Source: Antedon mediterranea
Taxonomy: Eukaryota; Animalia; Echinodermata
DNA: 64,000 bases
Reading direction: 5' to 3'
Assembly (NCBI RefSeq): GCF_964355755.1
Contig: NC_092673.1
Coordinates: 25,045,648 to 25,109,647 of the forward strand
Position numbers and translations under genes: made by a program
Notes under the pieces: model-generated
Databases searched by the model: none
The model's input: only the letters and a program-made list of their open reading frames with translations
Told to the model about the DNA's origin: nothing
Shown: positions 6,013 to 64,000 of the stretch, piece by piece
How the letters are laid out: each line of letters begins with the position of its first letter
Position numbering within the stretch: the stretch's first letter is position 1

Positions 6013-6193
6013 CATATGGATGTTTAATAAACACTTTAGTTGATGGTACTACTTCAATAGAATGTTTAGGCTAGAATAAGACCAGGAAAAAACAAAAAAT
6101 TGTGCTCCGAATGCTATATAAACAGCGGCAAAAATGGGAACTGGAGTAGTTTGTGTTTTCAATATTATAGGAAGAGCGGCAATAGCAATCCAG
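6013..6193 (+). promoter_or_regulatory. Gene A promoter and non-coding exon 1
   Basis: CATATG 6013, TAAACAC ~6028, TATATAAA 6115-6122, CAG|GTAAGA donor at 6194; intron 6194-6370 ends in AAACAG four bases before the ATG. Confidence 0.75.
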
Positions 6194-6374
6194 GTAAGAA
6201 CAATTTGTTTTAGTTTTTATTTTAATCCATACAGGACTATATAAAGAAATACACGATATTATAATCATTTTACTTTAATAAATATTTATACTGTACACGT
6301 AATTTGTTGAAATATAATAATTATGATAAGGCCTACTATTGATAGTTTTTTTTAAATATATTTTAAACAGAATC

Positions 6375-9300
6375 ATGTCCTGGATTCGGATCGCCCTGTT
6401 TTCTATTTTAGTTGTATTAGCCGTAAGAGGCCAATCTGTGGAAAATGACCAAAATGACGTCAATTTGGTTTCTCGTCCTGACGTTAATTTGGAGAGAAAA
6501 TCCGACAGTAGACCTGATATCAGCTTGAGTGAAAAAGAGCAACCACTGGTTGCTTCTCCTCCTCTGAATATCATTGATTCTGAAGGAACTGACAAAGTAA
6601 GAGCTTGCTGTAGACGTCGCAGAGTACGTCGATGCAGACGATGTCGCCGCCGATGTCATCGGTGTAGAAGACGACGCTGTCGATGTAGAAGACGAGTAGT
6701 ACGCCGTCGATGTAGAAGACGAGTAGTACGCCGTCGATGTAGAAGACGAATAGTACGCCGTCGATGTAGAAGACGAGTAGTACGTCGCCGTCGATGTAGA
6801 AGACGAAGAGTGTGCTGCCGTTATCGACTGTTCCGACGACGAGGCGCCTACTATCTCCGTATACAATGCGGTAGGCGTGTTCGTGTAGTACGTGTAAGAT
6901 GCCGAAGACGTGGTGGAAGGTTTTATTATTACTTTGGTGGAAGATGGAGGTTAGCTGGAGGAGTACGAAGAATACGCTGCAGCTATCGTCTGTTTAGAAG
7001 AGGAAATGCATATTACCTCCGTATAAAATGCGGTAGGCGTGTTCGTGTAGTACGTGTAAGATGCCGAAGACGTGGTGCAAGGTTTTATTATTACTTTGGT
7101 GGAAGATGGAGGTTAGCTGGAAGATTTAGAGGACGCACTACATACAGAGTGTGTTGGAGAAACAACCGTTTCTACATTCGTATACAATGTGGTAGACGTG
7201 TCCGTTATGTCCGTGTAAACTACAGAAGACGTGGTGGTAGATTGTATTACTATTATGGTGGAAGATGGAGAATTATCACACGCTTCATAAGAAACGGAAA
7301 ATGGGTAAGCTGGCGCCACTTTAGAGTACGCATCACCTACAGAGTATGTTGGAGACACAACCGTTTCTACCTCCGGGTACAACGTGGTAGACGTGTCCGT
7401 TATGTCCGTGTAAACTACAGAAGACGTGGTGGTAGATTGTATTACTATTATGGTGGAAGATGGAGAATTATCACACGCTTCATAAGAAACGGAAAATGGG
7501 TAAGCTGGCGCCACTTTAGAGTACGCATCACCTACAGAGTATGTTGGAGACACAACCGTTTCTACCTCCGGGTACAACGTGGTAGACGTGTCCGTTATGT
7601 CCGTGTAAACTACAGAAGACGTGGTGGTAGATTGTATTACTATTATGGTGGAAGATGGAGAATTATCACCCGCTTCATAAGAAACGGAAGATGGGTAAGC
7701 TGGCGTCACTTTAGAGTACGCATCACCTACCGAGTATGTTGGAGACACAACCGTTTCTACCTCCGGGTACAACGTGGTAGACGTGTCCGTTATGTCCGTG
7801 TAAACTACAGAAGACGTGGTGGTAGATTGTATTACTATTATGGTGGAAGATGGAGAATTATCACCCGCTTCATAAGAAAAGGAAGATGGGTAAGCTGGCG
7901 CCACTTTAGAGTACGCATCACCTACAGAGTATGTTGGAGACACAACCGTTTCTACCTCCGGGTACAACGTGGTAGACGTGTCCGTTATGTCCGTGTAAAC
8001 TACAGAAGACGTGGTGGTAGATTGTATTACCATTATGGTGGAAGATGGAGAATTATCACCCGCTTCATAAGAAACGGAAAATGGGTAAGCTGGCGCCACT
8101 TTAGAGTACGCATCACCTACAGAGTATGTTGGAGACACAACCGTTTCTACCTTCGAGTACAACGTGGTAGACGTGTCCGTTATGTCCGTGTAAACTACAG
8201 AAGACGTGGTGGTAGATTGTATTACCATTATGGTGGAAGATGGAGAATTATCACCCGCTTCATAAGAAACGGAAAATGGGTAAGCTGGCGCCACTTTAGA
8301 GTACGCATCACCTACAGAGTATGTTGGAGACACAACCGTTTCTACCTTCGAGTACAACGTGGTAGACGTGTCCGTTATATCCGTGTAAACTACAGAAGAC
8401 GTGGTGGTAGATTGTATTACTATTATGGTGGAAGATGGAGAATTATCACCCGCTTTATAAGAAAAGGAAGATGGGTAAGCTGGCGTCACTTTAGAGTACG
8501 CATCACCTACAGAGTATGTTGGAGACACAACCGTTTCTACCTCCGGGTACAACGTGGTAGACGTGTCCGTTATGTCCGTGTAAACTACAGAAGACGTGGT
8601 GGTAGATTGTATTACTATTATGGTGGAAGATGGAGAATTATCACCCGCTTCATAAGAAAAGGAAGATGGGTAAGCTGGCGCCACTTTAGAGTACGCGTCA
8701 CCTACAGAGTATGTTGGAGACACAACCGTTTCTACCTCCGGGTACAACGTGGTAGACGTGTCCGTTATGTCCGTGTAAACTACAGAAGACGTGGTGGTAG
8801 ATTGTATTACTATTATGGTGGAAGATGGAGAATTATCACCCGCTTCATAAGAAAAGGAAGATGGGTAAGCTGGCGTCACTTTAGAGTACGCGTCACCTAC
8901 AGAGTATGTTGGAGACACAACCGTTTCTACCTCCGGGTACAACGTGGTAGACGTGTCCGTTATGTCCGTGTAAACTACAGAAGACGTGGTGGTAGATTGT
9001 ATTACTATTATGGTGGAAGATGGAGAATTATCACCCGCTTCATAAGAAAAGGAAGATGGGTAAACTGGCGCCACTTTAGAGTACGCATCACCTACAGAGT
9101 ATGTTGGAGACACAACCGTTTCTACCTTCGAGTACAACGTGGTAGACGTGTCCGTTATGTCCGTGTAAACTACAGAAGACGTGGTGGTAGATTGTATTAC
9201 TATTATGGAGGAAGATGGAGAATTATCACCCGCTTCATAAGAAAAGGAAGATGGGTAAGCTGGCGCCACTTTAGAGTACGCGTCACCTACAGAGTATGTT

Positions 9301-11927
9301 GGAGACACAACCGTTTCTACCTCCGGGTACAACGTGGTAGACGTGTCCGTTATGTCCGTGTAAACTACAGAAGACGTGGTGGTAGATTGTATTACTATTA
9401 TGGAGGAAGATGGAGAATTATCACCCGCTTTATAAGAAAAGGAAGATGGGTAAGCTGGCGGCACTTTAGAGTACGCATCACCTACCGAGTATGTTGGAGA
9501 CACAACCGTTTTTACCTCCGGGTACAACGTGGTAGACGTGTCCGTTATGTCCGTGTAAACTACAGAAGACGTGGTGGTAGATTGTATTACTATTATGGAG
9601 GAAGATGGAGAATTATCACCCGCTTCATAAGAAAAGGAAGATGGGTAAGCTGGCGTCACTTTAGAGTACGCGTCACCTACAGAGTATGTTGGAGACACAA
9701 CCGTTTCTACCTCCGGGTACAACGTGGTAGACGTGTCCGTTATGTCCGTGTAATCTACAGAAGACGTGGTGGTAGATTGTATTACTATTATGGTGGAAGA
9801 TGGAGAATTATCACCCGCTTCATAAGAAAAGGAAGATGGGTAAGCTGGCGTCACTTTAGAGTACGCGTCACCTACAGAGTATGTTGGAGACACAACCGTT
9901 TCTACCTCCGGGTACAACGTGGTAGACGTGTCCGTTATGTCCGTGTAAACTACAGAAGACGTGGTGGTAGATTGTATTACTATTATGGAGGAAGATGGAG
10001 AATTATCACCCGCTTCATAAGAAAAGGAAGATGGGTAAGCTGGCGCCACTTTAGAGTACGCATCACCTACCGAGTATGTTGGAGACACAACCGTTTTTAC
10101 CTCCGGGTACAACGTGGTAGACGTGTCCGTTATGTCCGTGTAAACTACAGAAGACGTGGTGGTAGATTGTATTACTATTATGGAGGAAGATGGAGAATTA
10201 TCACCCGCTTCATAAGAAAAGGAAGATGGGTAAGCTGGCGCCACTTTAGAGTACGCGTCACCTACAGAGTATGTTGGAGACACAACCGTTTCTACCTTCG
10301 AGTACAACGTGGTAGACGTGTCCGTTATGTCCGTGTAAACTACAGAAGACGTGGTGGTAGATTGTATTACTATTATGGAGGAAGATGGAGAATTATCACC
10401 CGCTTCATAAGAAAAGGAAGATGGGTAAGCTGGCGCCACTTTAGAGTACGCGTCACCTACAGAGTATGTTGGAGACACAACCGTTTCTACCTACGGGTAC
10501 AACGTGGTAGACGTGTCCGTTATGTCCGTGTAAACTACAGAAGACGTGGTGGTAGATTGTATTACTATTATGGTGGAAGATGGAGAATTATCACCCGCTT
10601 CATAAGAAACGGAAAATGGGTAAGCTGGCGCCACTTTAGAGTACGCATCACCTACAGAGTATGTTGGAGACACAACCGTTTCTACCTCCGGGTACAACGT
10701 GGTAGACGTGTCCGTTATGTCCGTGTAAACTACAGAAGACGTGGTGGTAGATTGTATTACTATTATGGAGGAAGATGGAGAATTATCACCCGCTTCATAA
10801 GAAAAGGAAGATGGGTAAGCTGGCGCCACTTTAGAGTACGCATCACCTACAGAGTATGTTGGAGACACAACCGTTTCTACCTCCGGGTACAACGTGGTAG
10901 ACGTGTCCGTTATGTCCGTGTAAACTACAGAAGACGGGGTGGTAGATTGTATTACTATTATGGTGGAAGATGGAGAATTATCACCCGCTTCATAAGAAAC
11001 GGAAAATGGATAAGCTGGCGCCACTTTAGAGTACGCATCACCTACAGAGTATGTTGGAGACACAACCGTTTCTACCTTCGAGTACAACGTGGTAGACGTG
11101 TCCGTTATGTCCGTATAAACTACAGAAGACGTGGTGGTAGATTGTATTACTATTATGGAGGAAGATGGAGAATCCTTACCCGCTACAGAATAAACGGAAG
11201 ATGGGTAAGCTGGCGTCACTTTAGAGTACGCACCACCTACAGAGTATGTTGGAGACACAACCGTTTCTACCTCCGGGTACAACGTGGTAGTCGTGTCCGT
11301 TATATCCGTGTAAACTACAGAAGACGTGGTGGTAAATTGTATTACTATTATGGTGGAAGATGGAGAATCTTTACCCGCTACATAAGAAACGGCAAATGGG
11401 TAAGCTACCGATATCGCTTTACACATAACTCTAAAGTATTACAAAGGTATACCATTTGTTGGAGGCACGGCCATTTCTATCTTCAAATAAGATATGGTTT
11501 AAGTACCCGTTATGTCCGTGTAAACTACAGAAGACGTGGTGGTAAATTGTATTACTATTATGGTGGAAGATGGATAATCTTTACCCGCTACAGAAGAAAC
11601 GGTAAATGGGTAAGCTGTTCAAGCTTTCGAGTAAGTAGTTCAAGTCACACAGTTCACCACCACCACTATTACGGCACCCACGTAAGCCACTATCACCACT
11701 ATTCAAGCCACGGCTTCAGCTCAAGCAGCAGCTCAAGTGGAGGGTCCCACGTAATCCACCACTCTTCCAGTCACGGTTCCAGCTCAAGCGGAGGCTTTCA
11801 CAGTTCTGGTGGTTCAAGCTTTTCTTCGGGCGGCAGCGGCGGTGGTCACTCCTCAACTTCGACTCATACCGTTCACACTTCCGGTGGTGGAACGGTCGTC
11901 ACTACAACAACATATCATCACTATTAG
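6375..11927 (+). CDS. Gene A: secreted 1850-aa Arg/Tyr/Trp-rich tandem-repeat protein
   Basis: Real start is ATG 6375 after the acceptor. Signal peptide MSWIRIALFSILVVLAVRG, acidic pro-region, CC + Arg/Cys/Val tract, ~22 65-aa repeats, Ser/Gly/His tail; AATAAA at 12014. Confidence 0.9.
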   Translation: MSWIRIALFSILVVLAVRGQSVENDQNDVNLVSRPDVNLERKSDSRPDISLSEKEQPLVASPPLNIIDSEGTDKVRACCRRRRVRRCRRCRRRCHRCRRRRCRCRRRVVRRRCRRRVVRRRCRRRIVRRRCRRRVVRRRRCRRRRVCCRYRLFRRRGAYYLRIQCGRRVRVVRVRCRRRGGRFYYYFGGRWRLAGGVRRIRCSYRLFRRGNAYYLRIKCGRRVRVVRVRCRRRGARFYYYFGGRWRLAGRFRGRTTYRVCWRNNRFYIRIQCGRRVRYVRVNYRRRGGRLYYYYGGRWRIITRFIRNGKWVSWRHFRVRITYRVCWRHNRFYLRVQRGRRVRYVRVNYRRRGGRLYYYYGGRWRIITRFIRNGKWVSWRHFRVRITYRVCWRHNRFYLRVQRGRRVRYVRVNYRRRGGRLYYYYGGRWRIITRFIRNGRWVSWRHFRVRITYRVCWRHNRFYLRVQRGRRVRYVRVNYRRRGGRLYYYYGGRWRIITRFIRKGRWVSWRHFRVRITYRVCWRHNRFYLRVQRGRRVRYVRVNYRRRGGRLYYHYGGRWRIITRFIRNGKWVSWRHFRVRITYRVCWRHNRFYLRVQRGRRVRYVRVNYRRRGGRLYYHYGGRWRIITRFIRNGKWVSWRHFRVRITYRVCWRHNRFYLRVQRGRRVRYIRVNYRRRGGRLYYYYGGRWRIITRFIRKGRWVSWRHFRVRITYRVCWRHNRFYLRVQRGRRVRYVRVNYRRRGGRLYYYYGGRWRIITRFIRKGRWVSWRHFRVRVTYRVCWRHNRFYLRVQRGRRVRYVRVNYRRRGGRLYYYYGGRWRIITRFIRKGRWVSWRHFRVRVTYRVCWRHNRFYLRVQRGRRVRYVRVNYRRRGGRLYYYYGGRWRIITRFIRKGRWVNWRHFRVRITYRVCWRHNRFYLRVQRGRRVRYVRVNYRRRGGRLYYYYGGRWRIITRFIRKGRWVSWRHFRVRVTYRVCWRHNRFYLRVQRGRRVRYVRVNYRRRGGRLYYYYGGRWRIITRFIRKGRWVSWRHFRVRITYRVCWRHNRFYLRVQRGRRVRYVRVNYRRRGGRLYYYYGGRWRIITRFIRKGRWVSWRHFRVRVTYRVCWRHNRFYLRVQRGRRVRYVRVIYRRRGGRLYYYYGGRWRIITRFIRKGRWVSWRHFRVRVTYRVCWRHNRFYLRVQRGRRVRYVRVNYRRRGGRLYYYYGGRWRIITRFIRKGRWVSWRHFRVRITYRVCWRHNRFYLRVQRGRRVRYVRVNYRRRGGRLYYYYGGRWRIITRFIRKGRWVSWRHFRVRVTYRVCWRHNRFYLRVQRGRRVRYVRVNYRRRGGRLYYYYGGRWRIITRFIRKGRWVSWRHFRVRVTYRVCWRHNRFYLRVQRGRRVRYVRVNYRRRGGRLYYYYGGRWRIITRFIRNGKWVSWRHFRVRITYRVCWRHNRFYLRVQRGRRVRYVRVNYRRRGGRLYYYYGGRWRIITRFIRKGRWVSWRHFRVRITYRVCWRHNRFYLRVQRGRRVRYVRVNYRRRGGRLYYYYGGRWRIITRFIRNGKWISWRHFRVRITYRVCWRHNRFYLRVQRGRRVRYVRINYRRRGGRLYYYYGGRWRILTRYRINGRWVSWRHFRVRTTYRVCWRHNRFYLRVQRGSRVRYIRVNYRRRGGKLYYYYGGRWRIFTRYIRNGKWVSYRYRFTHNSKVLQRYTICWRHGHFYLQIRYGLSTRYVRVNYRRRGGKLYYYYGGRWIIFTRYRRNGKWVSCSSFRVSSSSHTVHHHHYYGTHVSHYHHYSSHGFSSSSSSSGGSHVIHHSSSHGSSSSGGFHSSGGSSFSSGGSGGGHSSTSTHTVHTSGGGTVVTTTTYHHY
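7126..11415 (+). repeat. Coding tandem repeat, 195 bp x 22 (degenerate units on both sides)
   Basis: TTAGAGTACG recurs at 7321, 7516, 8101 ... 11221 (exact multiples of 195); first variant unit at 7126. Confidence 0.95.
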
Positions 11928-15467: not shown

Positions 15468-15651
15468 CATATGGGTGTCCATTTAAGAAGAAAACACTTT
15501 AGATGATGATACTTTATTAAGAAGATGACCACCAGTATAAAAAAAAATCGGATGATTCGAATGCTATATAAACGGTGACAAATTTGAGATAACTACATCA
15601 GCTTTGGGCTATATCAATATCATTAAAAAAAGCAGAGCAACAGAAATCAAG
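15468..15651 (+). promoter_or_regulatory. Gene B promoter and non-coding exon 1
   Basis: CATATG 15468, TATATAAA 15565-15572, AAG|GTAAGA donor at 15652; intron ends TTTCAG at 15848. Confidence 0.75.
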
Positions 15652-15852
15652 GTAAGAATAACGACTTTTGCATACCTCTTTTGATAACTCCATTAAATTG
15701 AATATTCTCTAACAAGTTTGAGAGAAATCTTTGTAGAGTAAACATCGACTAGGACTTTTGCTTTTCCAAAAAAAAAAAGATAAAAATATAATATTACAAT
15801 TCGGTACAATCCGTTGTCTAAAATGGTATATCTATATATTTCTTTCAGAACT

Positions 15853-17325
15853 ATGTCTTGGTTTCGGCTTGCCCTAACCGCTATTTTAGTTGTGTCGGCC
15901 TTAAGCGGCGAAACAGTAGAAAATGACAGAGAGAACGTTAACTCGGTTTCCCATCCTGAAATTAATCTGGAGAGTAAATCCGACAATCAATATGTTATCA
16001 GCTTGAGTGAAAAAGAGCAACCACTGGTAGTTTCCTCTTCTCAGAATATAATTAAATCTTACCACCAACACAATCGATTTAGAGTACGACATCATCGAAG
16101 TACATACTATGGTCTCAGCTTAAGTGAAAAAGAACAAAGACTGGCAGATTCCCTTCCTCAGAACATAATTAAATCTGAGGGAGCTGACAAAGTATTAGCT
16201 TGTTGTAGACATCGCAGATACCGCCACCACTACCATCACTATCACCATATCCACTACCACCACCACTATCATATTCACCACCACCACCACATCCACCATC
16301 ACTACATCCACCACTATCATGTCCATCACTACCACATCCACCACCACCACTATAACATTCACCACCATCACTACCACCACCACTATCATGTCTACCACCG
16401 CCATCGATTTAGAAGACGACGTCATCGACGTACAACCTATGGTCTCAGCTTAAGACAAAAACAACAAAGTCTGGCAGATTCCTTTCCTCAGAACACGATT
16501 AAATCTGAGGGAGCTGACAAAGTATCAGCTTGTTGTAGACGTCACAGAGTTCGTTGTAGACGATGCCACTACCACATCCACATTCACCACCACTACCACA
16601 TTCACCACCACTTCCACCATCACTACCACCGCCACCACCACCGGTGTCGTCGATATAGAAGACGACACCGTCGACGTAGAAGACGTATAGCACGCCGCCA
16701 ACGTAGAAGGCGAAGAAAACTCCGTCGCCGTAGAAGACGAATGGCACGCCGTCAACGTAGAAGACGAAGACGACATCATCGACGTAGAAAACGAATGGCA
16801 CGTCGTCAACGTAGAAGACGAAGACGACAGCATCGGCGTAGAAGACGAATTGCACGCCGTCAACGTAGAAGACGAAGACGACACCATCGACGTAGCAGAC
16901 GAATGGCACATCGTCTACATAGAAGACGAAGACGACAGCATCGGCGTAGAAGACGAATAGCACGCCGTCAACGTAGAAGACGAAGACGACACCATCGACG
17001 TAGAAGACGAATAGCACGCCGTCAAAATAGAAGACGAAGACGACACAATCGACGTAGAAAACGAATAGCACGCCGTCAACGTAGAAGACGAAGACGACAC
17101 TGTCGACGTAGAAGACGGATAGCACGCCGTCTACGTAGAAGAGGAGTATATTGGAGACACAACCATTTCTACATTCGAGTACTATGTGGTAGACATGCTC
17201 ATTATGTTAGCATAAACTCCAGGAGACGTGGTGGTAGATTGTTTTATTTTTATGGTGGAAAATGGAGATTTTTTACTCGCTACAGAAGAAAAGGAATATG
17301 GATAACCTGCCCAAGATCAGGTTAA
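15853..17325 (+). CDS. Gene B: secreted 490-aa His-rich / poly-Arg protein
   Basis: ATG after TTTCAG AACT. Signal peptide MSWFRLALTAILVVSALSG, two spacer+CC-His modules, 8 x 18-aa Arg repeat, one C-terminal copy of the 65-aa-type domain. Confidence 0.88.
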   Translation: MSWFRLALTAILVVSALSGETVENDRENVNSVSHPEINLESKSDNQYVISLSEKEQPLVVSSSQNIIKSYHQHNRFRVRHHRSTYYGLSLSEKEQRLADSLPQNIIKSEGADKVLACCRHRRYRHHYHHYHHIHYHHHYHIHHHHHIHHHYIHHYHVHHYHIHHHHYNIHHHHYHHHYHVYHRHRFRRRRHRRTTYGLSLRQKQQSLADSFPQNTIKSEGADKVSACCRRHRVRCRRCHYHIHIHHHYHIHHHFHHHYHRHHHRCRRYRRRHRRRRRRIARRQRRRRRKLRRRRRRMARRQRRRRRRHHRRRKRMARRQRRRRRRQHRRRRRIARRQRRRRRRHHRRSRRMAHRLHRRRRRQHRRRRRIARRQRRRRRRHHRRRRRIARRQNRRRRRHNRRRKRIARRQRRRRRRHCRRRRRIARRLRRRGVYWRHNHFYIRVLCGRHAHYVSINSRRRGGRLFYFYGGKWRFFTRYRRKGIWITCPRSG

Positions 17326-20300: not shown

Positions 20301-21341
20301 ATTGTATTACTATTATGGTGGAAGATGGAGAATTATCACCCGCTACAGAATAAACGGAAGATGGGTAAGCTGGCGTCACTTTAGAGTACCCATCACTTAC
20401 ACAGAGTTTGCTGGAGACACAACCGTTTCTACCTTCGAGTACAACGTGGTAGACGTGTCCGTTATGTCGGTATAAACTACAGAAGACGTCGTGGTAGATT
20501 GTATTACTATTATGGTGGAAGATGGAGAAATATCACCCGCTACAGAATAAACGGAAGATGGGTAAGCTGGCGTCACTTTAGAGTACCCATCACTTACAGA
20601 GTGTGCTGGAGACACAACCGTTTCTACCGTCGAGTACAGCGTGGTAGACGTGTCCGTTATGTGGGTGTAAACTACAGAAGACGTCGTGGTAGATTGTATT
20701 ACTATTATGGAGGAAGATGGAGAATTATCACCCGCTACATAAGAAAAGGAAGATGGGTAAGCTGGCGTCACTTTAGAGTACTCATCACCTATAGAGTGTG
20801 TTGTAGACACAACCGTTTCTACCACGTCCACCACTATCACATTCACCACCAACACTACCACCACCACTATCATGTCCACCACCGCCATCGATTTAGAAGA
20901 CGACGTCGTCGAAGTACATACTGTGGTCTCAGCTTAAATGAAAAAGAACAAAGACTGGCAGATTCCCTTCCTCAGAACATAATTAAATCTGAAGGAGCTG
21001 ACAAAGTATTAGCTTGTTGTAGACGTCGCAGACACCACCACCGCCACCACCAACACTTCGGCTTCCATCTCCAAATTCACCACCACTACCAATACAATGG
21101 TCTCAGCTTAAGTGAAAATGAACAAAGCCTGGCAGATTCTCTTCCTCAGAACATAATTAAATCTGAAAGAGCTGACAAAGTATTAGCTAGTTGCAGATGT
21201 GGCAGATTACGTAGAAGACGAAGACGGCATAGAAGACGAATAGCACGCCGTCAACGTAGAAGACGAAGACGAAACCGTCGACGTAGAAGACGGATAGCAC
21301 GCCGTCTACGTAGAAGACGAGTATATTGGAGACACAACCAT

Positions 21342-24300: not shown

Positions 24301-24517
24301 TTGACACCAAAATCAATACTCTACGACAAGCGGTTACAAAGTTATAGACTAATTAAAATGGCAGCCATTTTGGACGCAATCTTGAATTTCTCGGAGAGCA
24401 CAAGGAGGATTTTTCAGGACTTTTAGTATGATGTTCCAATCATAGTTCTGGACCTTTCCTGAAAAAATTAGCTTGTTACCAGAAATGTCCGGGTCAAACC
24501 CTAATGCTCTTGGACTA
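21342..24517. mobile_element. Non-autonomous DNA transposon with ~640-bp TIRs (Academ-like termini)
   Basis: Ends TAGTCCAAGAGCATTAG / CTAATGCTCTTGGACTA; CAT duplicated at 21339-21341 and 24518-24520; paralogue D reads AACCATTACTAC (empty site). Arms ~21342-21981 and ~23889-24517. Confidence 0.85.
22899..22966 (-). pseudogene. tRNA-Ala-derived relic inside the transposon
   Basis: GGGGGACTAGCTCAAATGATAGAGCACTCACTTAGTA-----GAGGTACCGGGATCATTGCCTGCGTCTTTCA aligns by eye to metazoan tRNA-Ala(AGC), with a 5-nt anticodon-arm deletion and several transitions. Confidence 0.7.
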
Positions 24518-38583: not shown

Positions 38584-38991
38584 TTGCGCACTCCTCCTTC
38601 AAAGGTGCACAAAATAGAAGGCCTTAATTTATGAGGACAATGAAGTTAATAAGATTTATAGAGTCGTGTTATCATTCTATATTTTAACACGCCTAAATAG
38701 ATTATTTTCATTTGATTGGACGGTTGTGGGTCACATGAAAAGACAAGTGATGTAGCAAACTCGTGTAAATTATTATGTAAATCGAGTAGGCCTACTACAA
38801 CTTTGTTAATTGTTGTTACACAGTGAGTATGGGGGTCAGTGAGTGAGCATACACACGCGCGACAAGAGGGTGCTTGTCATATATTTTTCCTATTTTCTTC
38901 ATTCCACTCAAAAACAATCATTACAATATACGATACAATTCGGTCCAATCCGTTCCCTAAAATGGTATATTTATATATTTCTTTCAGAACT

Positions 38992-52070: not shown

Positions 52071-52254
52071 CATATGGGTGTCCATTTAAGAAGAAAACAC
52101 TTTAGATGATGATACTTTATTAAGAAGATGACCACCAGTATAAACAAAAATCGAATTATTCGAATGCTATATAAACGGCGAAAACATTGAGATAACTACA
52201 TTAGCTTTGGGCTATATCAATATCATTAAAAAAAGCAGAGCAACAGAAATCAAG
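52071..52254 (+). promoter_or_regulatory. Gene E promoter and non-coding exon 1
   Basis: CATATG 52071, TATATAAA 52168-52175, AAG|GTAAGA at 52255; intron to TTTCAG 53593. Confidence 0.75.
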
Positions 52255-53597
52255 GTAAGAATAACGACTTTTGCATAACTCTTTCGATAATTCTATTTAA
52301 TTGAATATTATCTAAGTTTGAGAGAATGTTTGTAGAGTAAACATCGACTAGGACTTTTGCCTTTCCAGCGAGAAACGTCGATTTGACTTCGTTCGCTGCG
52401 TAACAAGATATTGTATAATCACCTAAACTTTAATCTGTTGATTTCGTATCACATGCGGCTAACTATTAGTTCTGCATGTTAAAAGTTATATTTACCTTCG
52501 CTTAGGAGTTTATGTTCAATGGTTCATTACAGGCAGCTTTTTATAGAAATGTTTAGATTCTTGTGATACTTGAGGCTGGTGACTTTTGCGCGTTAAAGAC
52601 AACTTGTAGTGCCGTTTATAACTATTTCTAATCCCTAGACAAAATTGGAGAGATACACTTTTGAATGTCCTAGACTTCGACATTGATTAAAGATTGAAAA
52701 TATATCTAATTGAATAACAGTTTACTTTCGACCATCTGGTGTTAAAAAACAAATAATGTTTCGAATTCGTTGAAATCCGTTTGTTCGTACTTTTATTTTT
52801 GATATGTCCATGATATGGATATTCGTAATGCAACGCAACTTGTATTGTCTTTTAAATTGTGATTTTATTGTCATTTTCTCTCCTTTTTAAAAAGTTGAAT
52901 CAATTGAATTATTACAATTACCATAATAGTTTTTTTAGAATCGAGCATCTGAATAACTAAAAAAAGTATTTTCTAAACCTTAATTCATTATGAATATTTT
53001 AACACAATGATAAGCAACTTCGTGAATGAATTTCTTTAGCAAATTCTCGAAACTAATAAAGAACAAGGCCATATACATGGCTGCAGTCGCGTGCTCAAAT
53101 TAAAGTTAGTGTTTACCAACCAAACGACTGACCGACCGACCAACCAACCGACAGACCGACATAGTGAGCTGTAGATTCGCGTTGCATTGCGCACGCCTCC
53201 TTCAAAGGTGTACAAAATAGAAGGCCTTAAATTATGAGGACAATGAAGTTAATAAGATTTATAGAGTCGTGTTATCATTCTATATTTTAACACGCCTAAA
53301 TAGATTATTTTCATTTGATTGGACGGTTGTGGGTCACATGAAAAGACAAGTGATGTAGCACACTCGTGTAAATCATTATGTAAATCGATTAGGCCTACTA
53401 CAACTTTGTTAATTGTTGTTACACAGTGAGTGTGGGGGTCAGTGAGTGAGCATACACACGCGCGACAAGAGGGTGCTTGTCATAATATATTTTTCATATT
53501 TTCTTCATTCCACTCAAAAACAATCATTACAATATACGTTACAATTCGGTCCAATCTGTTCCCTAAAATGGTATATTTATATATTTCTTTCAGAACT

Positions 53598-56500
53598 ATG
53601 TTTTGGCTTCGGCTTGCCCTGACAGCTATTTTAGTTGTGTCGGCCTTAAGCCGCGAAACAGTGGAAAATGACAGAGAGAGAGTTAAAGAGAACGTTAACT
53701 CGGTTTCCCATCCTGAAAATTATTTGGAGAGTAAATCCGACAATCAACATGTTATCAGATTGAGTGAAAAACAACGACCAATGGTAGTTTCCTTTTCTCA
53801 GAACATAATTAAATCTGTCCTCCACCGCAATCGATTTAGAGTACGACATCGTCGAAGTACATACTATGGTCTCAGCTTAAGTGAAAAAGAACAAAGAGTG
53901 GCAGATTCCCTTACTCAGAACATAATTAAATCGGAAGGAGCTGACAAAGTATTAGCTTGTTGTAGACGTCACAGATACCACCTCCACTACTACCATCACC
54001 ATATCCACCACCACCACTACCACATCCACCATCACCACGTTCACCACCACCACTACCACATCCACCGCCACCACCACATTCACCACCACCACTACCACTA
54101 CCACCACTATCGTGTCCACCACCGCCATCGATTTAGAAGACGACGTCGTCGAAGTACATACTGTGGTCTCAGCTTAAGTGAAAAAAAACGAAGACTGGCA
54201 GATTCCCTTCCTCAGAACATAATTAAATCTGAAGGAGCTGACAAAGTATTAGCTTGTTGTAGACGTCACAGATACTACCACCACCATCACCACCATATCT
54301 ACCACCACCACCACTATCACATTCACCACCACCACTACCACATCCACCATCACCACCACCACTATCACATCCACCACCACCACTATCATATTCACCACCA
54401 CCACTACCACCACCACCACTATCATGTCCACCACCGCCGTCGATTTAGTAGATGGCGTCGTCGAAGTACATACTATGGTCTCAGCTTAAGTGAAAAAGAC
54501 CAAAGACTGGCAGATTCCAAAACAATTAAATCTGAAGGAGCTGACAAAGTATTAGCTTGTTGTAGACGTCACAGAGTGCATTGCAGACGATACCACCACC
54601 GCCATCATTATCACCACCACCACCACCACTATTACATTCACCACCACCACTACTACATCCATCACCACATTTACCACCACTATCACATTCACCACCACTA
54701 CCACCACCGCTATCATGTCTTCCACCGCCATCGATTTAGTAGACGGCGTCGTCGAAGTACATATTATGGTCTCAGCTTAGGTGAAAAAGAACAAAGACTG
54801 GCAGATTCACTTCCTCAGAACATAATTAAATCTGAAAGGGCTGACAAAGTATTAGCTTGTTGTAGACGTCACAGATACCACCACCACCACTACCATCACC
54901 ATATCCACCACCACCACCACCACTATCACATTCACCACCACCATCACAACTACAAAATCCACTATCACCACATTCACAACCACTACTACCACATCCACCA
55001 CCACCACAATCACATTCACCACCACTACCACCACCACTATCATGTCCACCGCCATCGATTTAGAAGACGACGTCGTCGAAGTACATACTGTGGTCTCAGC
55101 TTAAGTGAAAAAGAACAAAGACTGGCATATTCCCTTCCTCAGAACATAATTAAATCTGAAGGAGCTGACAAAGTATTAGCTTGTTGTAGACGTCACAGAT
55201 ACCACCACCACCACTACCATCACCATATCCACCACCACCACCACCACTATCACATTCACCACCACCACTACCACATCCACCATCACCACCACCACCAACA
55301 CCACCACCACTATCACATCCACCACCATCACTATCACATTCACCACCACTACCACCACCGCTATCATGTCCTCCACCGCCATCGATTTAGTAGACGGCGT
55401 CGTCGAAGTACATATTATGGTCTCAGCTTAGGTGAAAAAGAACAAAGACTGGCAGACTCTCTTCCCCAGAACATAATTAAATCTGAAGGGGCTGACAAAG
55501 TATTAGCTTGTTGTAGACGTCACAGAAACCACCACTACCACTACCATCACCATATCCACCACCACCACCACCACCACCATCACCACTATCACATTCACCA
55601 CCACCACCACCACAACTACCACATCCACTATCACCACATTCACAACCACCACTACCACATCCACCACCACCACTATTACATTCACCACCACTATCATGAT
55701 CACCGCCATCGATTTAGAAGACGACGTCGTCGAAGTACATACTGTGGTCTCAGCTTAAGTGAAAAAGAACAAAGACTGGCATATTCCCTTCCTCAGAACA
55801 TAATTAAATCTGAAGGAGCTGACAAAGTATTAGCTTGTTGTAGACGTCACAGATACCACCACCACCACTACCATCACCATATCCACCACCACCACCACCA
55901 CTATCACATTCACCACCACCACTACCACATCCACCATCACCACCACCACCACCACCACTATCACATCCACCACCATCACTATCACATTCACCACCACTAC
56001 CACCACCGCTATCATGTCCTCCACCGCCATCGATTTAGTAGACGGCGTCGTCGAAGTACATATTGTGGTCTCAGCTTCGGTGAAAAAGAACAAAGACTGG
56101 CAGATTCCCTTCCCCAGAACATAATTAAATCTGAAGGGGCTGACAAAGTATTAGCTTGTTGTAGACGTCACAGAAACCACCACCACCACTACCATCACCA
56201 TATCCACCACCACCACCACCACCACCACCATCACCACTATCACATTTACCACCACCACCACAACTACCACATCCACTATCACCACATTCACAACCACCAC
56301 TACCACATCCACCACCACCACTATTACATTCACCACCACTATCATGATCACCGCCATCGATTTAGAAGACGACGTCGTCGAAGTACATACTGTGGTCTCA
56401 GCTTAAATGAAAAAGAACAAAGACTGGCATATTCCCTTCCTCAGAACATAATTAAATCTGAAGGAGCTGACAAAGTTTTAGCTTGTTGTAGACGTCACAG

Positions 56501-57377
56501 ATACCACCACCACTACTACCATCGCCATATCCACCACCACCACCACTATCACATTCACCACCACCAATACCACATCCACCATATTCACCACCACCACTAC
56601 CAAATCCACCACCACCACTACCACATTCACCACCACCACTACCACCACTATCATGTCCACCACCGCCATCGATTTAGAAGACGACGTCGTCGAAGTACAT
56701 ACTGTGGTCTCAGCTTAAGTGAAAAAGAACAAAGACTGGCAGATTCCCTTCCTCAGAACATAATTAAACCTGAAGGAACTGACAAAGTATTAGCTTGTTG
56801 TAGACATCACAAAGTGCATTGCAGACGATACCACCACCGCCATCATTATCACCACCACCACCACCACTATCACATTCACCACCACCACTACTACATCCAT
56901 CACCACCTCCAACACCACCACATTCACCACCACTACCACCACCACTATCATGTCCACCGTCGCCATCGATTTAGAAGACGGCGTCGTCGAAGTACATACT
57001 ATGGTCTCAGCTTAAGTGAAAAAGAACAAAGATTGACAGATTCCCTTCCTCAGAACATAATTAAATCTGAAGGAGCTGACAAAGTATTAGCTTGTTGTAT
57101 ATGTGGAAGAATACGTAGAATACGAAGACGACATAGAAGACGAAAAGCACGCCGTCAACGTAGAAGACGAAGACGACACTGTCAACATAGAAGACAAGTA
57201 TATTGGAGACACAACCATTACTACCTTCGAGTACTATGTGGTGGACACGCTCATTATGTTAGCATAAACTCCAGGAGGCGTGGTGGTAGATTGTATTATT
57301 ATTATGGTGGAAGATGGAGAATCTTTACCCGCTACAGAAGAAACGGAATATGGATAACTTGCCCAAGATCGGGTTAA
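53598..57377 (+). CDS. Gene E: secreted 1259-aa poly-His modular protein (10 His modules)
   Basis: Close paralogue of D; eleven KVLACC spacers; intact ORF; same C-terminal domain ending ITCPRSG. Confidence 0.9.
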   Translation: MFWLRLALTAILVVSALSRETVENDRERVKENVNSVSHPENYLESKSDNQHVIRLSEKQRPMVVSFSQNIIKSVLHRNRFRVRHRRSTYYGLSLSEKEQRVADSLTQNIIKSEGADKVLACCRRHRYHLHYYHHHIHHHHYHIHHHHVHHHHYHIHRHHHIHHHHYHYHHYRVHHRHRFRRRRRRSTYCGLSLSEKKRRLADSLPQNIIKSEGADKVLACCRRHRYYHHHHHHIYHHHHYHIHHHHYHIHHHHHHYHIHHHHYHIHHHHYHHHHYHVHHRRRFSRWRRRSTYYGLSLSEKDQRLADSKTIKSEGADKVLACCRRHRVHCRRYHHRHHYHHHHHHYYIHHHHYYIHHHIYHHYHIHHHYHHRYHVFHRHRFSRRRRRSTYYGLSLGEKEQRLADSLPQNIIKSERADKVLACCRRHRYHHHHYHHHIHHHHHHYHIHHHHHNYKIHYHHIHNHYYHIHHHHNHIHHHYHHHYHVHRHRFRRRRRRSTYCGLSLSEKEQRLAYSLPQNIIKSEGADKVLACCRRHRYHHHHYHHHIHHHHHHYHIHHHHYHIHHHHHHQHHHHYHIHHHHYHIHHHYHHRYHVLHRHRFSRRRRRSTYYGLSLGEKEQRLADSLPQNIIKSEGADKVLACCRRHRNHHYHYHHHIHHHHHHHHHHYHIHHHHHHNYHIHYHHIHNHHYHIHHHHYYIHHHYHDHRHRFRRRRRRSTYCGLSLSEKEQRLAYSLPQNIIKSEGADKVLACCRRHRYHHHHYHHHIHHHHHHYHIHHHHYHIHHHHHHHHHYHIHHHHYHIHHHYHHRYHVLHRHRFSRRRRRSTYCGLSFGEKEQRLADSLPQNIIKSEGADKVLACCRRHRNHHHHYHHHIHHHHHHHHHHHYHIYHHHHNYHIHYHHIHNHHYHIHHHHYYIHHHYHDHRHRFRRRRRRSTYCGLSLNEKEQRLAYSLPQNIIKSEGADKVLACCRRHRYHHHYYHRHIHHHHHYHIHHHQYHIHHIHHHHYQIHHHHYHIHHHHYHHYHVHHRHRFRRRRRRSTYCGLSLSEKEQRLADSLPQNIIKPEGTDKVLACCRHHKVHCRRYHHRHHYHHHHHHYHIHHHHYYIHHHLQHHHIHHHYHHHYHVHRRHRFRRRRRRSTYYGLSLSEKEQRLTDSLPQNIIKSEGADKVLACCICGRIRRIRRRHRRRKARRQRRRRRRHCQHRRQVYWRHNHYYLRVLCGGHAHYVSINSRRRGGRLYYYYGGRWRIFTRYRRNGIWITCPRSG

Positions 57378-60893: not shown

Positions 60894-61138
60894 CATATGG
60901 CGAAAGTAAACACTCTGGTTGTTTTCGACCTTTTTCAACATTATAATGTTTATATGTATGGAATGTTTAATAAACAAAACAAAATGATAATACTTCAATA
61001 GCAGGTTCAAGTTTTAAGACCACCCGTATAATAAAAAAAAATCGTATGAAGCAAGCTATATAAACGGCAAAAACATATTGCCACTTAATTAGTTTTTGGT
61101 CGTCAAAATTATTCTTAGCAGAGCGACAGTATATCAAG
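60894..61138 (+). promoter_or_regulatory. Gene F promoter and non-coding exon 1
   Basis: CATATG 60894, TAAACAC ~60907, TATATAAA 61057-61064, AAG|GTAAGA at 61139; intron to TTACAG 62498. Confidence 0.72.
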
Positions 61139-62502
61139 GTAAGAAAAAATAATCTGTTTTTATATCTCGTCATTAGTTCTAATCGACGCTAAAAGTTCTA
61201 TTTTTATTGATTTTATTACATGGCACTTTCAAAACCCGTAAACCTGTGGTGTGGGACGTCTATAACTTTTCAATTCTCCGCGGCCAAAATATGAGCGGTA
61301 ATTTTTTTAATGACCGAGCCCTTGGCATTAATCAAATATAAAAAAAAAATGAATAAATGTTTTCAAATCAGGAAAAAAAAAAACATTCCAAAATACCGTT
61401 ATATAATACAAACAGAATGGTCACACTACGGTATGCAATTTGGTGTCACTTAAATATGTGTTAAAATTATAATTATTATTATTTCTTCGAGAAGTTTTTA
61501 AATTCACAGTATATGGCGGATATGGCAACTCTGATAATTCGATACTATTCCGTGGTAATAGACTCATTGCAGCTAGTAATCATTATATTATTTTAACGAG
61601 ACGAGCTCAAGTTTAATATTGAATATCGAAACGTGGCAGGCTATAGGCGCTTGCTTGACCTTTGACAGGATCGCCTAAAATTTATAATTTAAAACTACGA
61701 TACTTACTGTATATTCATGAATAGCCGCTTCATAGTCTCTTTGCTTTTCTTCCTTATATCTTATTCTTATTAACTCAAAATTATTTATACTAAGAAACAT
61801 TACTATTTATATGCCTAGTGTGTAAACATTATTGACATAATTTCATTAAACATCCACATAAAGTACAACTCTTCTTAACAATTTTTTTTTCAATCTTCTA
61901 TCAACTAAAAGTCGTAGTTAGTCATGTCTCGGGTCACATTCTATGGTCACCGTACATATAGGCTACTACTTCAGTACTTCTATGAATGGATGACAATAGT
62001 TGGTGACAAGAACGCTAGTTGGTCATACTCAGTACCGTTTTGATTTTACGATCATTCGGGAAATCGCCTCAAAACGGGGAAAAGCAATAGATTTGAAAAG
62101 AATAGAAAATGCTGCAATCCTTTCGAAGTTAACTTCGACACAACTCTATGACGTAGACATTTAGTTGACTAATCACCACTAGCTACATCTCAGGTGGTAC
62201 AATGAATCGCACAATAAATTCTAAACCGCCCGGTGAAATACTGATATATGTATAATTATATAAATCCAAAGGCAAATTACTGAAAAAATGTCAGTGGCTG
62301 GATCTCAACAGAGATAAAAAAAAAAAAAGCAAAAAGCTAAATCAAAACGATAAAGTAAAACAGCCCTTCATATATATATATATAATATATATATATATAT
62401 ATAATATATATGATAAAAAATACTGTCCTTTTTAGACACAATATCAATAGAGAACTACGGTACAATTCGTTCAATACAATTTGTAAATTTCTTTACAGAA
62501 CT

Positions 62503-64000
62503 ATGTCTTGGCTTGGGCTTACCATGTTCGCTATTTTAGCTGTGTCAGCCGTAAGAGGCAGAGCAGTGAAGAGTAAATCCGAAAGTAGACCTGATATCAG
62601 CTTGAGTGAAAAAGAACATCCACTGGTTAATTTCCCTCCTCGGCAAATAATTGATTCTGAAGCCGAAAGCAGCTTGAGTGAAAAAGAACAGCCATTAGCT
62701 GATTTCCCTCCTCGGGAAATAATTGATTCTGAAGCCGAAAGCAGCTTGAGTGAAAAAGAACATCCACTGGTTAATTTCCCTCCTCGGCAAATAATTGATT
62801 CTGAAGCCGAAAGCAGCTTGAGTGAAAAAGAACAGCCATTAGCTGATTTCCCTCCTCGGGAAATAATTGATTCTGAAGCAGCCGAAAGCAGCTTGAGTGA
62901 AAAAGAACGGCCATTAGCTGATTTCCCTCCTCGGGAAATAATTGATTCTGAAGCCGAAAGCAGCTTGAGTGAAAAAGAACATCCACTGGTTAATTTCCCT
63001 CCTCGGCAAATAATTGATTCTGAAGCCGAAAGCAGCTTGAGTGAAAAAGAACAGCCATTAGCTGATTTCCCTCCTCGGGAAATAATTGATTCTGAAGCCG
63101 AAAGCAGCTTGAGTGAAAAAGAAAAGCCACTAGGTGATTTCCCTCCTCAGGAAATAATTGATTCTGAAGCTGAAAGCAGCTTGAGTGAAAACGAAGAGCC
63201 ATTAGCTGATTTCCCTCCTCAGGAAATAATTGATTCTGAAGCAGCCGAAAGCAGCTTGAGTGAAAAAGAACGGCCATTAGCTGATTTCCCTCCTCGGGAA
63301 ATAATTGATTCTGAAGCCGAAAGCAGCTTGAGTGAAAATGAAAAGCCACTAGCTGATTTCCCTCCTCGGGAAATAATTGATTCTCAAGCCGAAAGCAGCT
63401 TGAGTGAAAAAGAACAGTCACTAGCTGATTTCCCTCCTCGAGAAATAATTGATTCTGAAGCCGAAAGCAGCTTGAGTGAAAATGAAAAGCCACTAGCTGA
63501 TTTCCCTCCTCGGGAAATAATTAATTCTGAAGCCGAAAGCAGCTTGAGTGAAAAAGAACGGCCATTAGCTGATTTCCCTCCTCGGGAAATAATTGATTCT
63601 GAAGCCGAAAGCAGCTTTAGTGAAAAAGAACAACCATTAGCTGATTTCCCTCCTCGGGAAATAATTGATTCTGAAGCCGAAAGCAGCTTGAGTGAAAAAG
63701 AACAACCATTAGCTGATTTCCCTCCTCGGGAAATAATTGATTCTGAAGCCGAAAGCAGCTTGAGTGAAAAAGAACAGCCACTAACTGATTTCCCTCCTCA
63801 GGAAATAATTGATTCTGAAGCAGCCGAAAGCAGCTTGAGTGAAAAAGAACGGCCATTAGCTGATTTCCCTCCTCGAGAAATAATTGATTCTGAAGCCGAA
63901 AGCAGCTTGAGTGAAAATGAAAAGCCACTAGCTGATTTCCCTCCTCGGGAAATAATTGATTCTGAAGCCGAAAGCAGCTTGAGTGAAAAAGAACAGTCAC
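62503..64000 (+). CDS. Gene F (3'-partial): secreted protein with ~19 acidic 24-aa repeats
   Basis: Manual translation MSWLGLTMFAILAVSAVRGRAVKSKSESRPDI(SLSEKEQPLADFPPREIIDSEAES)n; 72/75-bp units; no stop seen before the window end, and the ORF track omits it. Confidence 0.88.
   Translation, partial: MSWLGLTMFAILAVSAVRGRAVKSKSESRPDISLSEKEHPLVNFPPRQIIDSEAESSLSEKEQPLADFPPREIIDSEAESSLSEKEHPLVNFPPRQIIDSEAESSLSEKEQPLADFPPREIIDSEAAESSLSEKERPLADFPPREIIDSEAESSLSEKEHPLVNFPPRQIIDSEAESSLSEKEQPLADFPPREIIDSEAESSLSEKEKPLGDFPPQEIIDSEAESSLSENEEPLADFPPQEIIDSEAAESSLSEKERPLADFPPREIIDSEAESSLSENEKPLADFPPREIIDSQAESSLSEKEQSLADFPPREIIDSEAESSLSENEKPLADFPPREIINSEAESSLSEKERPLADFPPREIIDSEAESSFSEKEQPLADFPPREIIDSEAESSLSEKEQPLADFPPREIIDSEAESSLSEKEQPLTDFPPQEIIDSEAAESSLSEKERPLADFPPREIIDSEAESSLSENEKPLADFPPREIIDSEAESSLSEKEQS

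Follow-up and report, generated by a model that had tools for sequence, protein, structure and literature searches.

The precursors of antimicrobial peptides in marine invertebrates, as outlined in passages of PMC10608444, consist of a signal peptide, a short pro-spacer, and a cationic tract, and are encoded by clustered genes. According to the same passages, anionic propeptides neutralise the mature peptide, and β-hairpin peptides are stabilised by cation–π contacts. Arenicin, tachyplesin, and polyphemusin are, in excerpted descriptions, 17–22 aa long, with one or two disulfides and with strands of Arg, aromatic residues, and Val joined by tight turns. In the parts of PMC5940198 that describe the sea urchin SpTransformer (Sp185/333) family, two-exon genes with mosaic blocks encode secreted proteins, exon 1 encodes the leader, and a Gly-rich multimerisation region precedes the His-rich region, for which binding to negatively charged, phosphate-bearing targets has been proposed. 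The sabellariid cement proteins Pc-1 to Pc-5 comprise secreted polycations, some of them His- or Tyr-rich, as well as a phosphorylated polyanion with ~70% Ser; co-packaging through complex coacervation and curing by DOPA are further features of this cement.

The cluster described here consists of six paralogous loci arranged in tandem on the plus strand of a 64-kb window (the whole stretch of crinoid DNA analysed), one of which (C) is broken. Like the β-hairpin antimicrobial peptides, its module 3 is predicted to have strands of Arg, aromatic residues, and Val with tight turns, and it is part of a precursor with a predicted secretion signal; unlike them, it is 65 aa long, with eight strands and one Cys, is found in up to 25 tandem copies, and is accompanied by neither BRICHOS nor any other Pfam prodomain. 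With SpTransformer the cluster shares an echinoderm host, two-exon genes for secreted proteins, mosaic blocks, and a His-rich region. It differs in an exon 1 that is free of ATG in 5/5 cases, in the low Gly content of B, D, and E (2.5–2.7%), as well as in its abundant Cys, predicted β module, and polyanionic paralogue, and no sequence match between the two was found. Our best explanation, to which we assign a probability of about 0.35, is that a crinoid protein family with predicted secretion signals is encoded here, probably condensed in granules and processed by convertases, and that it would serve as a cationic defence secretion binding anionic surfaces such as those of microbes.

Organization of the Gene Cluster

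In five of the six loci, with the exception of C, a TATA promoter (GCTATATAAA) is accompanied by an exon 1 that lacks any ATG and by a predicted intron with GT..AG borders that ends 4 nt upstream of the ATG, which is thus located in exon 2 (Table 1). The hydrophobic N-termini are alignable across all six paralogues, and in the five that were tested the maximal Kyte–Doolittle values of 11-mers are 2.5–3.1, with no later 19-mer above 0.9. A sequence-only reading of this DNA had proposed a cluster of six paralogues with homologous signal peptides, and both proposals agree with these data, the signals being predicted; the shared gene structure that it also proposed extends to five loci but not to C.

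Between the paralogues A, B, D, and F, the 120 bp upstream of the TATA box can be aligned (z 5.2–6.8 in 5/5 distant pairs), whereas a control segment at −420..−300 yields no alignment among the paralogues (z −2.0 to 0.6). The view that the cluster genes may be regulated together gains support from this conservation. The neighbour gene of the cluster, ES1/GATD3, is an exact match to that of Antedon mediterranea, so that the DNA comes from a feather star; a search for LINE homologues and a cluster look-up pointed to no taxon.

A spacer common to the six paralogues precedes each cationic tract. The three modules named earlier (spacer, CC with its low-complexity tract, and module 3) are shared by the family in general, but F displays within the window only the first of them, with neither CC tract nor module 3, its C terminus lying beyond the window. 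Amplification of a different module in each paralogue is confirmed: module 3 in A, an Arg 18-mer in B, the spacer with CC and His tract in D and E, and the spacer in F.

Table 1. Features of the cluster, in window positions; rows of coding sequences (CDS) and of gene C begin at the respective ATG.
Feature	Position	Strand	Description
5′ region of gene A: TATA box, untranslated exon 1	6113..6193	+	upstream 120 bp conserved in paralogues
Gene A intron	6194..6370	+	177 bp, GT..AG, predicted
Gene A CDS	6375..11927	+	1850 aa with net charge +570; signal and pro-region, then spacer and Cys/Arg tract, 25 copies of module 3, and a tail of His, Ser, and Gly
Module-3 array of A	6813..11633	+	predicted β-meander; two short Cys-rich variants, 22 near-identical units, one divergent last unit
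His/Ser/Gly-rich tail of A	11610..11927	+	
5′ region of gene B: TATA, untranslated exon 1, intron (predicted)	15563..15848	+	intron 15652–15848
Gene B CDS	15853..17325	+	490 aa with net charge +151; besides the signal, three spacers and two His tracts, as well as Arg 18-mer ×9 and one module 3
Gene C, pseudogene	19238..24680	+	A-like 5′ half, D-like 3′ half; mosaic
Non-coding DNA element, 3.2 kb	21342..24517	.	643-bp terminal inverted repeats, 3-bp target duplication; inside last domain of C
5′ region of gene D: TATA, untranslated exon 1, intron (predicted)	37547..38987	+	intron 37636–38987
Gene D CDS	38992..42078	+	1028 aa, 309 His; eight units of spacer, CC, and His/Tyr/Ile tract, each closed by an Arg run, before an Arg tract and a single module 3
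5′ region of gene E: TATA, untranslated exon 1, intron (predicted)	52166..53593	+	intron 52255–53593
Gene E CDS	53598..57377	+	1259 aa, 396 His; ten His units with an Arg tract and a single module 3
5′ region of gene F: TATA, untranslated exon 1, intron (predicted)	61055..62498	+	intron 61139–62498
Gene F CDS, still open where the window stops	62503..64000	+	at least 499 aa; signal, then about 19 copies of acidified 24-aa spacer

Gene A and Module 3

The window contains 35 copies of module 3, with 25 in A, seven in C, and one each in B, D, and E. The regular unit of A (65 aa, 195 bp), present in 22 near-identical copies that follow one another with no spacers, is rich in Arg, Tyr, Val, Gly, and Trp (31% Arg; 12 of 65 residues Tyr or Trp), strongly cationic, and carries a single Cys. 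Gene A also includes a protamine-like Cys/Arg tract, and AATAAA signals are located 3′ of it at 12014 and 12159.

The structure model of module 3 (pLDDT 88.7, pTM 0.69) consists of eight strands with short turns and predicts a folded domain in the form of a β-meander, a row of β-hairpins. The prediction of a folded domain was a point missed by the sequence-only reading. Alternation of basic and apolar residues does not differ significantly from that in 20000 shuffles (p 0.11–0.13), so no amphipathic face is demonstrated. Foldseek returned no match to the model at E 0.001, and VIA-align returned none among 48161 chains at Z 5, its best alignments reaching Z 3.9 (59 aligned, rmsd 5.5) and Z 3.1 (49 aligned, rmsd 1.9); with such scores, neither a new nor a known fold is established. 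Prediction of a complex of module 3 with two F repeats, run with alignments unused, gave no answer (score 0.00).

Other Members of the Cluster

Gene B is a mosaic of His tracts and an Arg 18-mer, the latter encoded by a 54-bp repeat present nine times (16658–17142), and E is a recent tandem duplicate of D. An Arg run closes all 18 His units (eight in D and ten in E). The motif R-x-[RK]-R, which we take to be a multibasic, convertase-like site, directly precedes S/T-T-Y eight times in D, ten times in E, and once in B. Like convertase-processed polyproteins, D and E have these sites at their repeat boundaries, and they are predicted to be such polyproteins, cleavage itself being a prediction only. 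The sequence-only reading had missed this plan.

His accounts for 16–31% of residues in B, D, and E (~30% in D and E), and Tyr for 9–11% in A, D, and E, with Cys counts of 31–44. Arg dominates in the cationic paralogues (its share over Lys is 0.80–0.95), where Lys amounts to 1.5–3.4% and Gly to 2.5–9.4%; Met is limited to 0.1–0.8% in the cluster proteins.

F is the only polyanion of the family and consists, in the 499 aa seen, of the spacer alone after the signal, with a net charge of −85, no Cys, and no Tyr. Ser makes up 17% of this part, in which S-x-x-E/D occurs 59 times and S-x-E does not occur. All 19 spacer windows of F have charges of −3 to −7, whereas 21 of the 24 in B, D, and E fall between −2 and +2, and the other three (+2, +5, and +6) are the first of each gene, reaching into the short Arg tract. 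The spacer, described earlier as acidic, is therefore acidic in F and near neutral in B, D, and E.

Gene C, counted among the six genes in the sequence-only reading, which missed the damage, is a pseudogene. It is frameshifted near 20117, 20399, and 24602, its last domain is split by the inserted transposon, and 17326–19237 contains neither a promoter copy nor one of exon 1.

Searches for Relatives

A profile of modules 1–3, a check that the sequence-only reading had proposed, gave no matches among 1.84 billion representatives, and the N-terminal alignment gave none among 7998 candidates sought in longer proteins. No match was found in Pfam for a single 65-aa repeat, in NCBIfam at E <0.03 for five cluster queries, or, in usable form, in the ESM Atlas for two. 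Five exact cluster motifs were absent from the literature text searched, and four motifs from all seven supplements of PMC9793003; the titles and abstracts found, a search outside which subscription papers lie, do not describe such a protein family. The earlier impression that no named family is involved thus agrees with the homologue, Pfam, fold, and literature searches. The five cluster ORFs queried against an exact collection of 15 billion entries are all missing from it, although the neighbour ES1 is present; since even these ORFs are missing, the blank profile and N-terminal searches are no evidence that other crinoids lack the family.

Several candidates were rejected. Whole-protein scores for Pfam SAF (A) and Dynein_IC2 (F) exceeded the cut-offs, but no single stretch did so alone, as expected of summed repeat noise. 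PDB sequence matches to Pur-alpha (E 0.035–1.4) and to a Fab were dismissed, and the one of 150 candidates that passed a metagenome scan, presumably FHA-like, was a chance match.

Functional Interpretation

In the defence secretion that we favour, one secretory cell type would transcribe all genes from the common promoter, and the cargo would be kept soluble or condensed through cation–π contacts (Arg with Tyr or Trp), His protonation or metal binding, as well as through pairing with F or with sulfated polyanions. Proprotein convertases would then cleave after the Arg runs, freeing His peptides of ~100 aa that may chelate Zn, Cu, or Ni at the pH of seawater, while CC and free Cys would cross-link and the Arg-rich hairpins would bind lipopolysaccharide, phospholipid, mucus, or particles. 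Microbes would be trapped or killed, or foulers deterred, and new mixtures of modules, such as B and C, would be continually created by unequal crossing-over. The convertase-like sites, the model of module 3, promoter conservation, coding constraint, and the mosaics B and C speak for this reading, as do the match between the precursor plan of the cluster and that of antimicrobial peptides, the target binding proposed for the His-rich regions of SpTransformer, and the weak hint that A is transcribed. Against it, the near-neutral spacers of B, D, and E could not neutralise the tracts in the way anionic propeptides do, and A, a homogenised polymer of 1850 aa, is closer to a material protein than to hairpins of 17–22 aa. 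The echinoderm part of a review of antimicrobial peptides (PMC11767717) includes, in the portion consulted, no crinoid peptide, and the cluster provides concrete, seemingly unannotated candidates for crinoid antimicrobial peptides or for the content of saccules.

The main rival, possible but not preferred, is an adhesive or structural kit in which the polycations A, B, D, and E form coacervates with the polyanion F in granules and are cured through His–metal, disulfide, and Tyr cross-links to yield larval cement, glue fixing eggs to pinnules, or feeding mucus of the tube feet. The long homogenised repeats, the Tyr, Cys, and His contents given above, and a polyanionic paralogue under the same promoter would suit such a kit; moreover, in parts of PMC11336682, Antedon larvae are described as using an adhesive pit and embryos as being fixed to pinnules. 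Proteins of opposite charge, along with His-rich ones, are likewise used in tubeworm cement, and polycations of Lys and Tyr coacervate by themselves at the salt level of seawater. The comparison with sandcastle cement, drawn in the sequence-only reading, nevertheless fails on composition. Sabellariid polycations have a high content of Lys, His, Gly, and Tyr, of which His and Tyr but not Lys or Gly are abundant in the cluster proteins, Arg taking the place of Lys, and F, based on Glu and Asp, is not of the phosphoserine type. In addition, all charges in the cluster stem from one paralogous family, the visible charge is unbalanced (+570, +151, +123, and +153 in A, B, D, and E versus −85 in F), and the convertase-like sites would chop D and E into short pieces. 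The likeness to Nereis Nvjp-1 and the His-rich domains of mussels, also invoked earlier, lies in 27–31% His with 7–9% Tyr, and metal-triggered assembly is plausible; however, the cluster proteins lack Gly–His repeats, and their His tracts are broken by Tyr and Ile and bordered by CC motifs and by runs of Arg. To our knowledge, crinoids have neither byssus nor jaw, which indicates organs other than those in the earlier comparisons.

What saccules do has been an open question since the 19th century; they are said to be missing in Comatulidae such as Anneissia. They are refractile bodies along the food grooves, with a function stated to be unknown in parts of a preprint (bioRxiv 10.1101/2024.08.14.607903), and they bind sense RNA probes non-specifically. 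We can speculate, while regarding it as doubtful, that the cluster proteins are the bulk filling of saccules, condensed as granules of very high refractive index, one lineage-born gene having given rise to a polycation, poly-His, and polyanion kit with a new tandem β-meander polycation fold. If true, this would explain both the non-specific binding of RNA probes and the high refractivity of saccules, and would open the hypotheses of defence, mucus, and lens to direct testing.

Immune effectors of coelomocytes, that is, infection-induced, His-rich mosaic opsonins that would act not at the surface but within the coelomic fluid, are an unlikely alternative. SpTransformer genes are expressed in phagocytes after immune challenge. 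The two-exon clustered genes, mosaic patterns, and His-rich region recall SpTransformer, but the leader is in exon 2, B, D, and E have no Gly-rich region, Cys is abundant, and the repeats within the proteins have been homogenised instead of diversifying.

A filler of high refractive index, by which stored proteins would turn saccules into lenses or light guides above opsin-bearing nerves, is more improbable still. Reflectins possess a Met-rich repeat motif; the cluster proteins, in which the polarisable residues Arg, Tyr, Trp, His, and Cys are enriched as in crystallins and reflectins, resemble these in composition only, having a signal peptide, less than 1% Met, and no Greek-key or reflectin repeat that could be seen. 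Predicted dn/dc values, from a per-residue table of which two values are sourced, are 0.209 for A and 0.213–0.218 for the 18 His tracts, compared with a human mean of 0.1899 and 0.2084 for the top crystallin (PMC4047532), and the preference for Arg over Lys, as well as the high refractivity and proposed lens role of saccules (in parts of the same preprint), would fit. However, any protein rich in Arg, His, and Tyr scores high, F scores 0.184, and a lens needs neither convertase-like sites nor CC motifs. Just as improbable is a secretion linked to gametes (from the cortical granules or coat of the egg, or an acrosomal protein of sperm or a seminal protein) or a granule for metal storage: fast turnover and the protamine-like tract of A would agree with the former and His with metal binding, but the signal peptide excludes a nuclear protamine role and Pfam detected no egg-coat domain.

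Whatever the function, one small gene appears to have produced both poles of a polyelectrolyte pair together with a putatively metal-binding polyprotein by amplification of modules. The predicted small, very cationic β repeat may merit attention in work on adhesives for use under water, coacervates, coatings of high index, and host-defence peptides.

Coding Constraint and Possible Transcription

That non-coding tandem repeats or an assembly artefact were mistaken for genes is hardly credible: the lack of cluster ORFs in the exact collection and the decay of C would fit, but the array of A has no stops in the coding frame versus 3–168 in the other five, promoters and splice sites are conserved, dN/dS is below 1, and DNA coverage at the 3′ end of A is single-copy. 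Open frames of 1.5–5.6 kb amid surroundings of 32% GC are more than chance would produce. Values of dN/dS are below 1 in 35 of 36 module-3 pairs, which are not independent, the 36th being identical, and amount to 0.36–0.44 between A and D/E. Indels are multiples of three in 33/33 cases in 17 His-unit alignments versus 4/21 in the flanks, with the reservation that these alignments share one reference unit and that CAC-type repeats slip by three bases regardless. Constraint is not uniform, since the ends of D and E differ by 11 non-synonymous versus two synonymous codon changes and dN exceeds dS in the signal peptide of F compared with B–E.

The 3′ end of A is found at single-copy depth in the DNA-like runs X2–X4, which supports the assembly there. 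Run X1, taken as RNA by guess alone and derived from one study, does not cover the start of exon 2 of B and is at background level on the shared spacer bin, neither of which is counted as evidence here. At the 3′ end of A, its depth is 36–472 times that of the DNA-like run X3, compared with 0–0.45 in all 26 other bins, and its contig ends at 12159, at the AATAAA signal, while DNA contigs continue past this point, a weak hint that gene A is transcribed.

Gene Organization, Promoters, and Transcription

The six paralogous loci, A to F, all lie on the + strand, in keeping with the cluster of related genes described in the sequence-only reading. The common structure that it attributed to all of them is present in A, B, D, E, and F, in which GCTATATAAA is followed by an ATG-free exon 1 of about 55–65 nt and by a predicted GT..AG intron (177–1360 bp) that ends 4 nt 5′ of the ATG. 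C departs from it, being a chimaera, A-like first and D-like after; since it carries frameshifts and its last domain is interrupted by a 3.2-kb element, and since no promoter copy was found upstream, C is a pseudogene. The TAG...CTA ends of that element resemble those of Academ transposons.

Genes A, B, D, and F share a conserved stretch, the 120 bp upstream of the TATA box (z 5.2–6.8 in the five distant pairs, 25 for B–D), whereas the control region, −420 to −300, is unconserved (z −2.0 to 0.6 in distant pairs, 10.4 for B–D). About 55–90 bp above the TATA box, A and F have in common a near-palindromic TGTTTAATAAACA and then TACTTCAATAG, a stretch that resembles paired Forkhead sites and is kept just in part in B, D, and E.

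Antedon mediterranea is a feather star (Crinoidea, Antedonidae). Gene A is arranged head to head with an ES1/GATD3 homologue, the start of which, at 4942, lies ~1.2 kb from the A TATA box. A single ES1 exon used as query retrieved one protein only, XP_071947921.1 of the same species, which all four exons match at every residue as far as the splice junctions, N-terminal leader included. This neighbour provides a synteny anchor for other crinoids.

Words of A occur in five sequencing runs, none recorded as RNA, of which X1 is RNA by guess. At the 3′ end of A, X1 reaches 36–472 times the depth of the DNA-like reference X3, compared with 0–0.45 in the remaining 26 of 30 bins, and its contig stops at 12159, the start of an AATAAA, past which the DNA contigs run on; X2–X4 behave like DNA over 11620–16200. 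This comparison, made on contigs from one study, gives a weak hint, for A only, that the gene is transcribed.

Features of the window (gene positions are those of the ATG)
Feature	Position	Strand	Description
ES1/GATD3, first four exons	338–4942	−	
A, F shared stretch	6022–6060; 60964–61000		
A	6375	+	1850 aa (Arg 30%, net charge +570); spacer, Cys/Arg tract, 25 module 3 copies, His/Ser/Gly tail
Antisense frame of A array	7113–10490	−	open 1125 codons; Ser/Thr/Val/Tyr/Asp-rich
High-copy repeats	12940–13760; 14980–15290		interspersed; hundreds to few thousand × single-copy depth (X2–X4)
136-bp repeat, one partial copy	14021–14200		upstream of B
B	15853	+	490 aa; spacer (×3), His tract (×2), Arg 18-mer (×9), module 3 (×1)
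C	19238	+	frameshifts near 20117, 20399, 24602
Element in C	21342–24517		non-coding; 643-bp inverted repeats, 3-bp target duplication
Palindrome, C–D	27218–34375		near-perfect; arm identity 93%, 6-bp target duplication, no long ORF
136-bp tandem repeats	34417–35022; 49222–49824		4.4 copies; about 2.3–2.5 kb above D and E TATA boxes
D	38992	+	1028 aa, 30–31% His; 8 units (spacer, CC, His/Tyr/Ile tract, Arg run), Arg tract, one module 3
LINE, D–E	44509–49098		intact-looking; poly-A end, 14-bp target duplication
LINE ORF	44624–48424		1266 aa; endonuclease, reverse transcriptase, zinc-finger
E	53598	+	1259 aa, 30–31% His; 10 units as in D, Arg tract, one module 3
F	62503	+	about 19 spacer copies, no Cys/Tyr; runs past window end

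Modules of the Encoded Proteins

The N-termini of the paralogues are hydrophobic and can be aligned, as expected of the homologous signal peptides proposed earlier, and the five proteins tested have neither a membrane-length segment beyond the N-terminus nor an N-glycosylation site. Each paralogue does amplify its own module: the 65-aa module 3 in A, an Arg 18-mer in B, the spacer (module 1) with the CC and His-rich tract (module 2) in D and E, and the spacer in F. The spacer had been called acidic, which holds for F (−3 to −7 per 24 aa) but not for B, D, and E, where 21 of 24 windows are near neutral (−2 to +2). R-x-[RK]-R immediately precedes S/T-T-Y eight times in D and ten times in E; the short first unit supplies one of these in each, and a variant Arg run closes one His unit in each.

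Three A repeats modelled alone are predicted to be all-beta (pLDDT 75, pTM 0.35), their packing left undefined, and one module 3 unit modelled with a 16-row paralogue alignment yields eight strands with two-residue turns (pLDDT 88.7, pTM 0.69). Alternation of basic and apolar residues is not significant. The open antisense frame of the A array is probably a shadow of repeat codon use.

Possible Function

PMC10608444 describes invertebrate defence-peptide precursors as signal, pro-spacer, and cationic tract, and the cluster is like them, with the plan repeated behind multibasic sites and the genes clustered. The polyanion sibling, the homogenised repeats, and the presence of free Cys, CC, His, and Tyr are also hallmarks of condensing granule cargo and of marine materials (PMC12621633 and PMC9999432). 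Both likenesses point to dense granules and differ in end use. The proteins would be packed in dense secretory granules, D and E may be cut into short peptides, as their build appears to suggest, and the Arg/aromatic hairpins and His-rich regions could bind anionic microbial surfaces, as such elements do in known systems (PMC10608444 and PMC5940198). Beyond the secretion signal and module content, we infer all of these steps.

A surface defence secretion is ranked first (probability about 0.35), because D and E seem made for cutting into short peptides and the proteins do not qualify as a cement. The same two points weigh against an adhesive or structural use, a tentative second choice. An opsonin of coelomocytes is unlikely.

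Antedon saccules are abundant, highly refractive, and functionally still unexplained, with mucus, reserve, light, and lens among the proposals (bioRxiv 10.1101/2024.08.14.607903); their non-specific binding of sense probes (PMC9793003) is what a polycation store would do. Predicted dn/dc values of A (0.209) and of the His tracts (0.213–0.218) exceed those of all 128 control proteins (mean 0.194, maximum 0.196) and the top crystallin value, 0.2084, in PMC4047532 (Table 1), any Arg/His/Tyr-rich protein scoring high in such a comparison. It is doubtful, on this circumstantial evidence, that saccules contain the cluster proteins. Comatulidae are not known to have saccules. A refractive filler is improbable, as is a gamete secretion or metal store, and an artefact is very improbable.

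Relationship to Known Families

No named family had been recognised, and profile, word-seeded, Pfam, NCBIfam, Atlas, PDB, and metagenome searches likewise returned no relative; five cluster motifs have zero occurrences in the searchable literature. The sole passing metagenome candidate for module 3 (L001:730–960) is an FHA-like bacterial protein with one common hairpin-like word, a chance match. Five cluster ORFs are absent from the exact 15-billion collection, in which ES1 of the same species is present, so that the ORFs seem unannotated and the blank homologue searches say little about other crinoids. The cluster represents a real crinoid family that is apparently undescribed; in its workings it resembles both defence-peptide polyproteins and polyelectrolyte secretion kits but is a member of none tested (further background: PMC11336682, PMC11118217, bioRxiv 10.64898/2026.08.22.746458, PMC11767717, PMC9027906, PMC7351957).

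Constraint and History of the Cluster

Of the 36 pairs of module 3 copies compared, which are not independent, 35 have dN/dS values under 1 (0.22–0.90), with 0.36–0.44 for A against D/E; the D and E copies are identical. Indels keep the frame in 33 of 33 cases in the His units versus 4 of 21 in the flanks, although triplet repeats slip by three anyway and the comparisons are not independent. Two observations argue against uniform constraint: the ends of D and E differ at 11 non-synonymous and 2 synonymous codons, and the signal peptide of F has dN > dS against B–E.

The 3′ flanks of C and D are 95% identical over 2.6 kb, and the regions above D and above E match at 97% and 93%. The C–D and D–E gaps are the same sequence, interrupted by a 7.2-kb palindrome in the former and by a LINE in the latter. 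Judging from these sequences, the cluster grew by tandem duplication and module shuffling. The palindrome is a foldback-type insertion. The LINE insertion site resembles the 3′ tail of the LINE itself, the nearest full-length relatives of which show about 37–39% identity.
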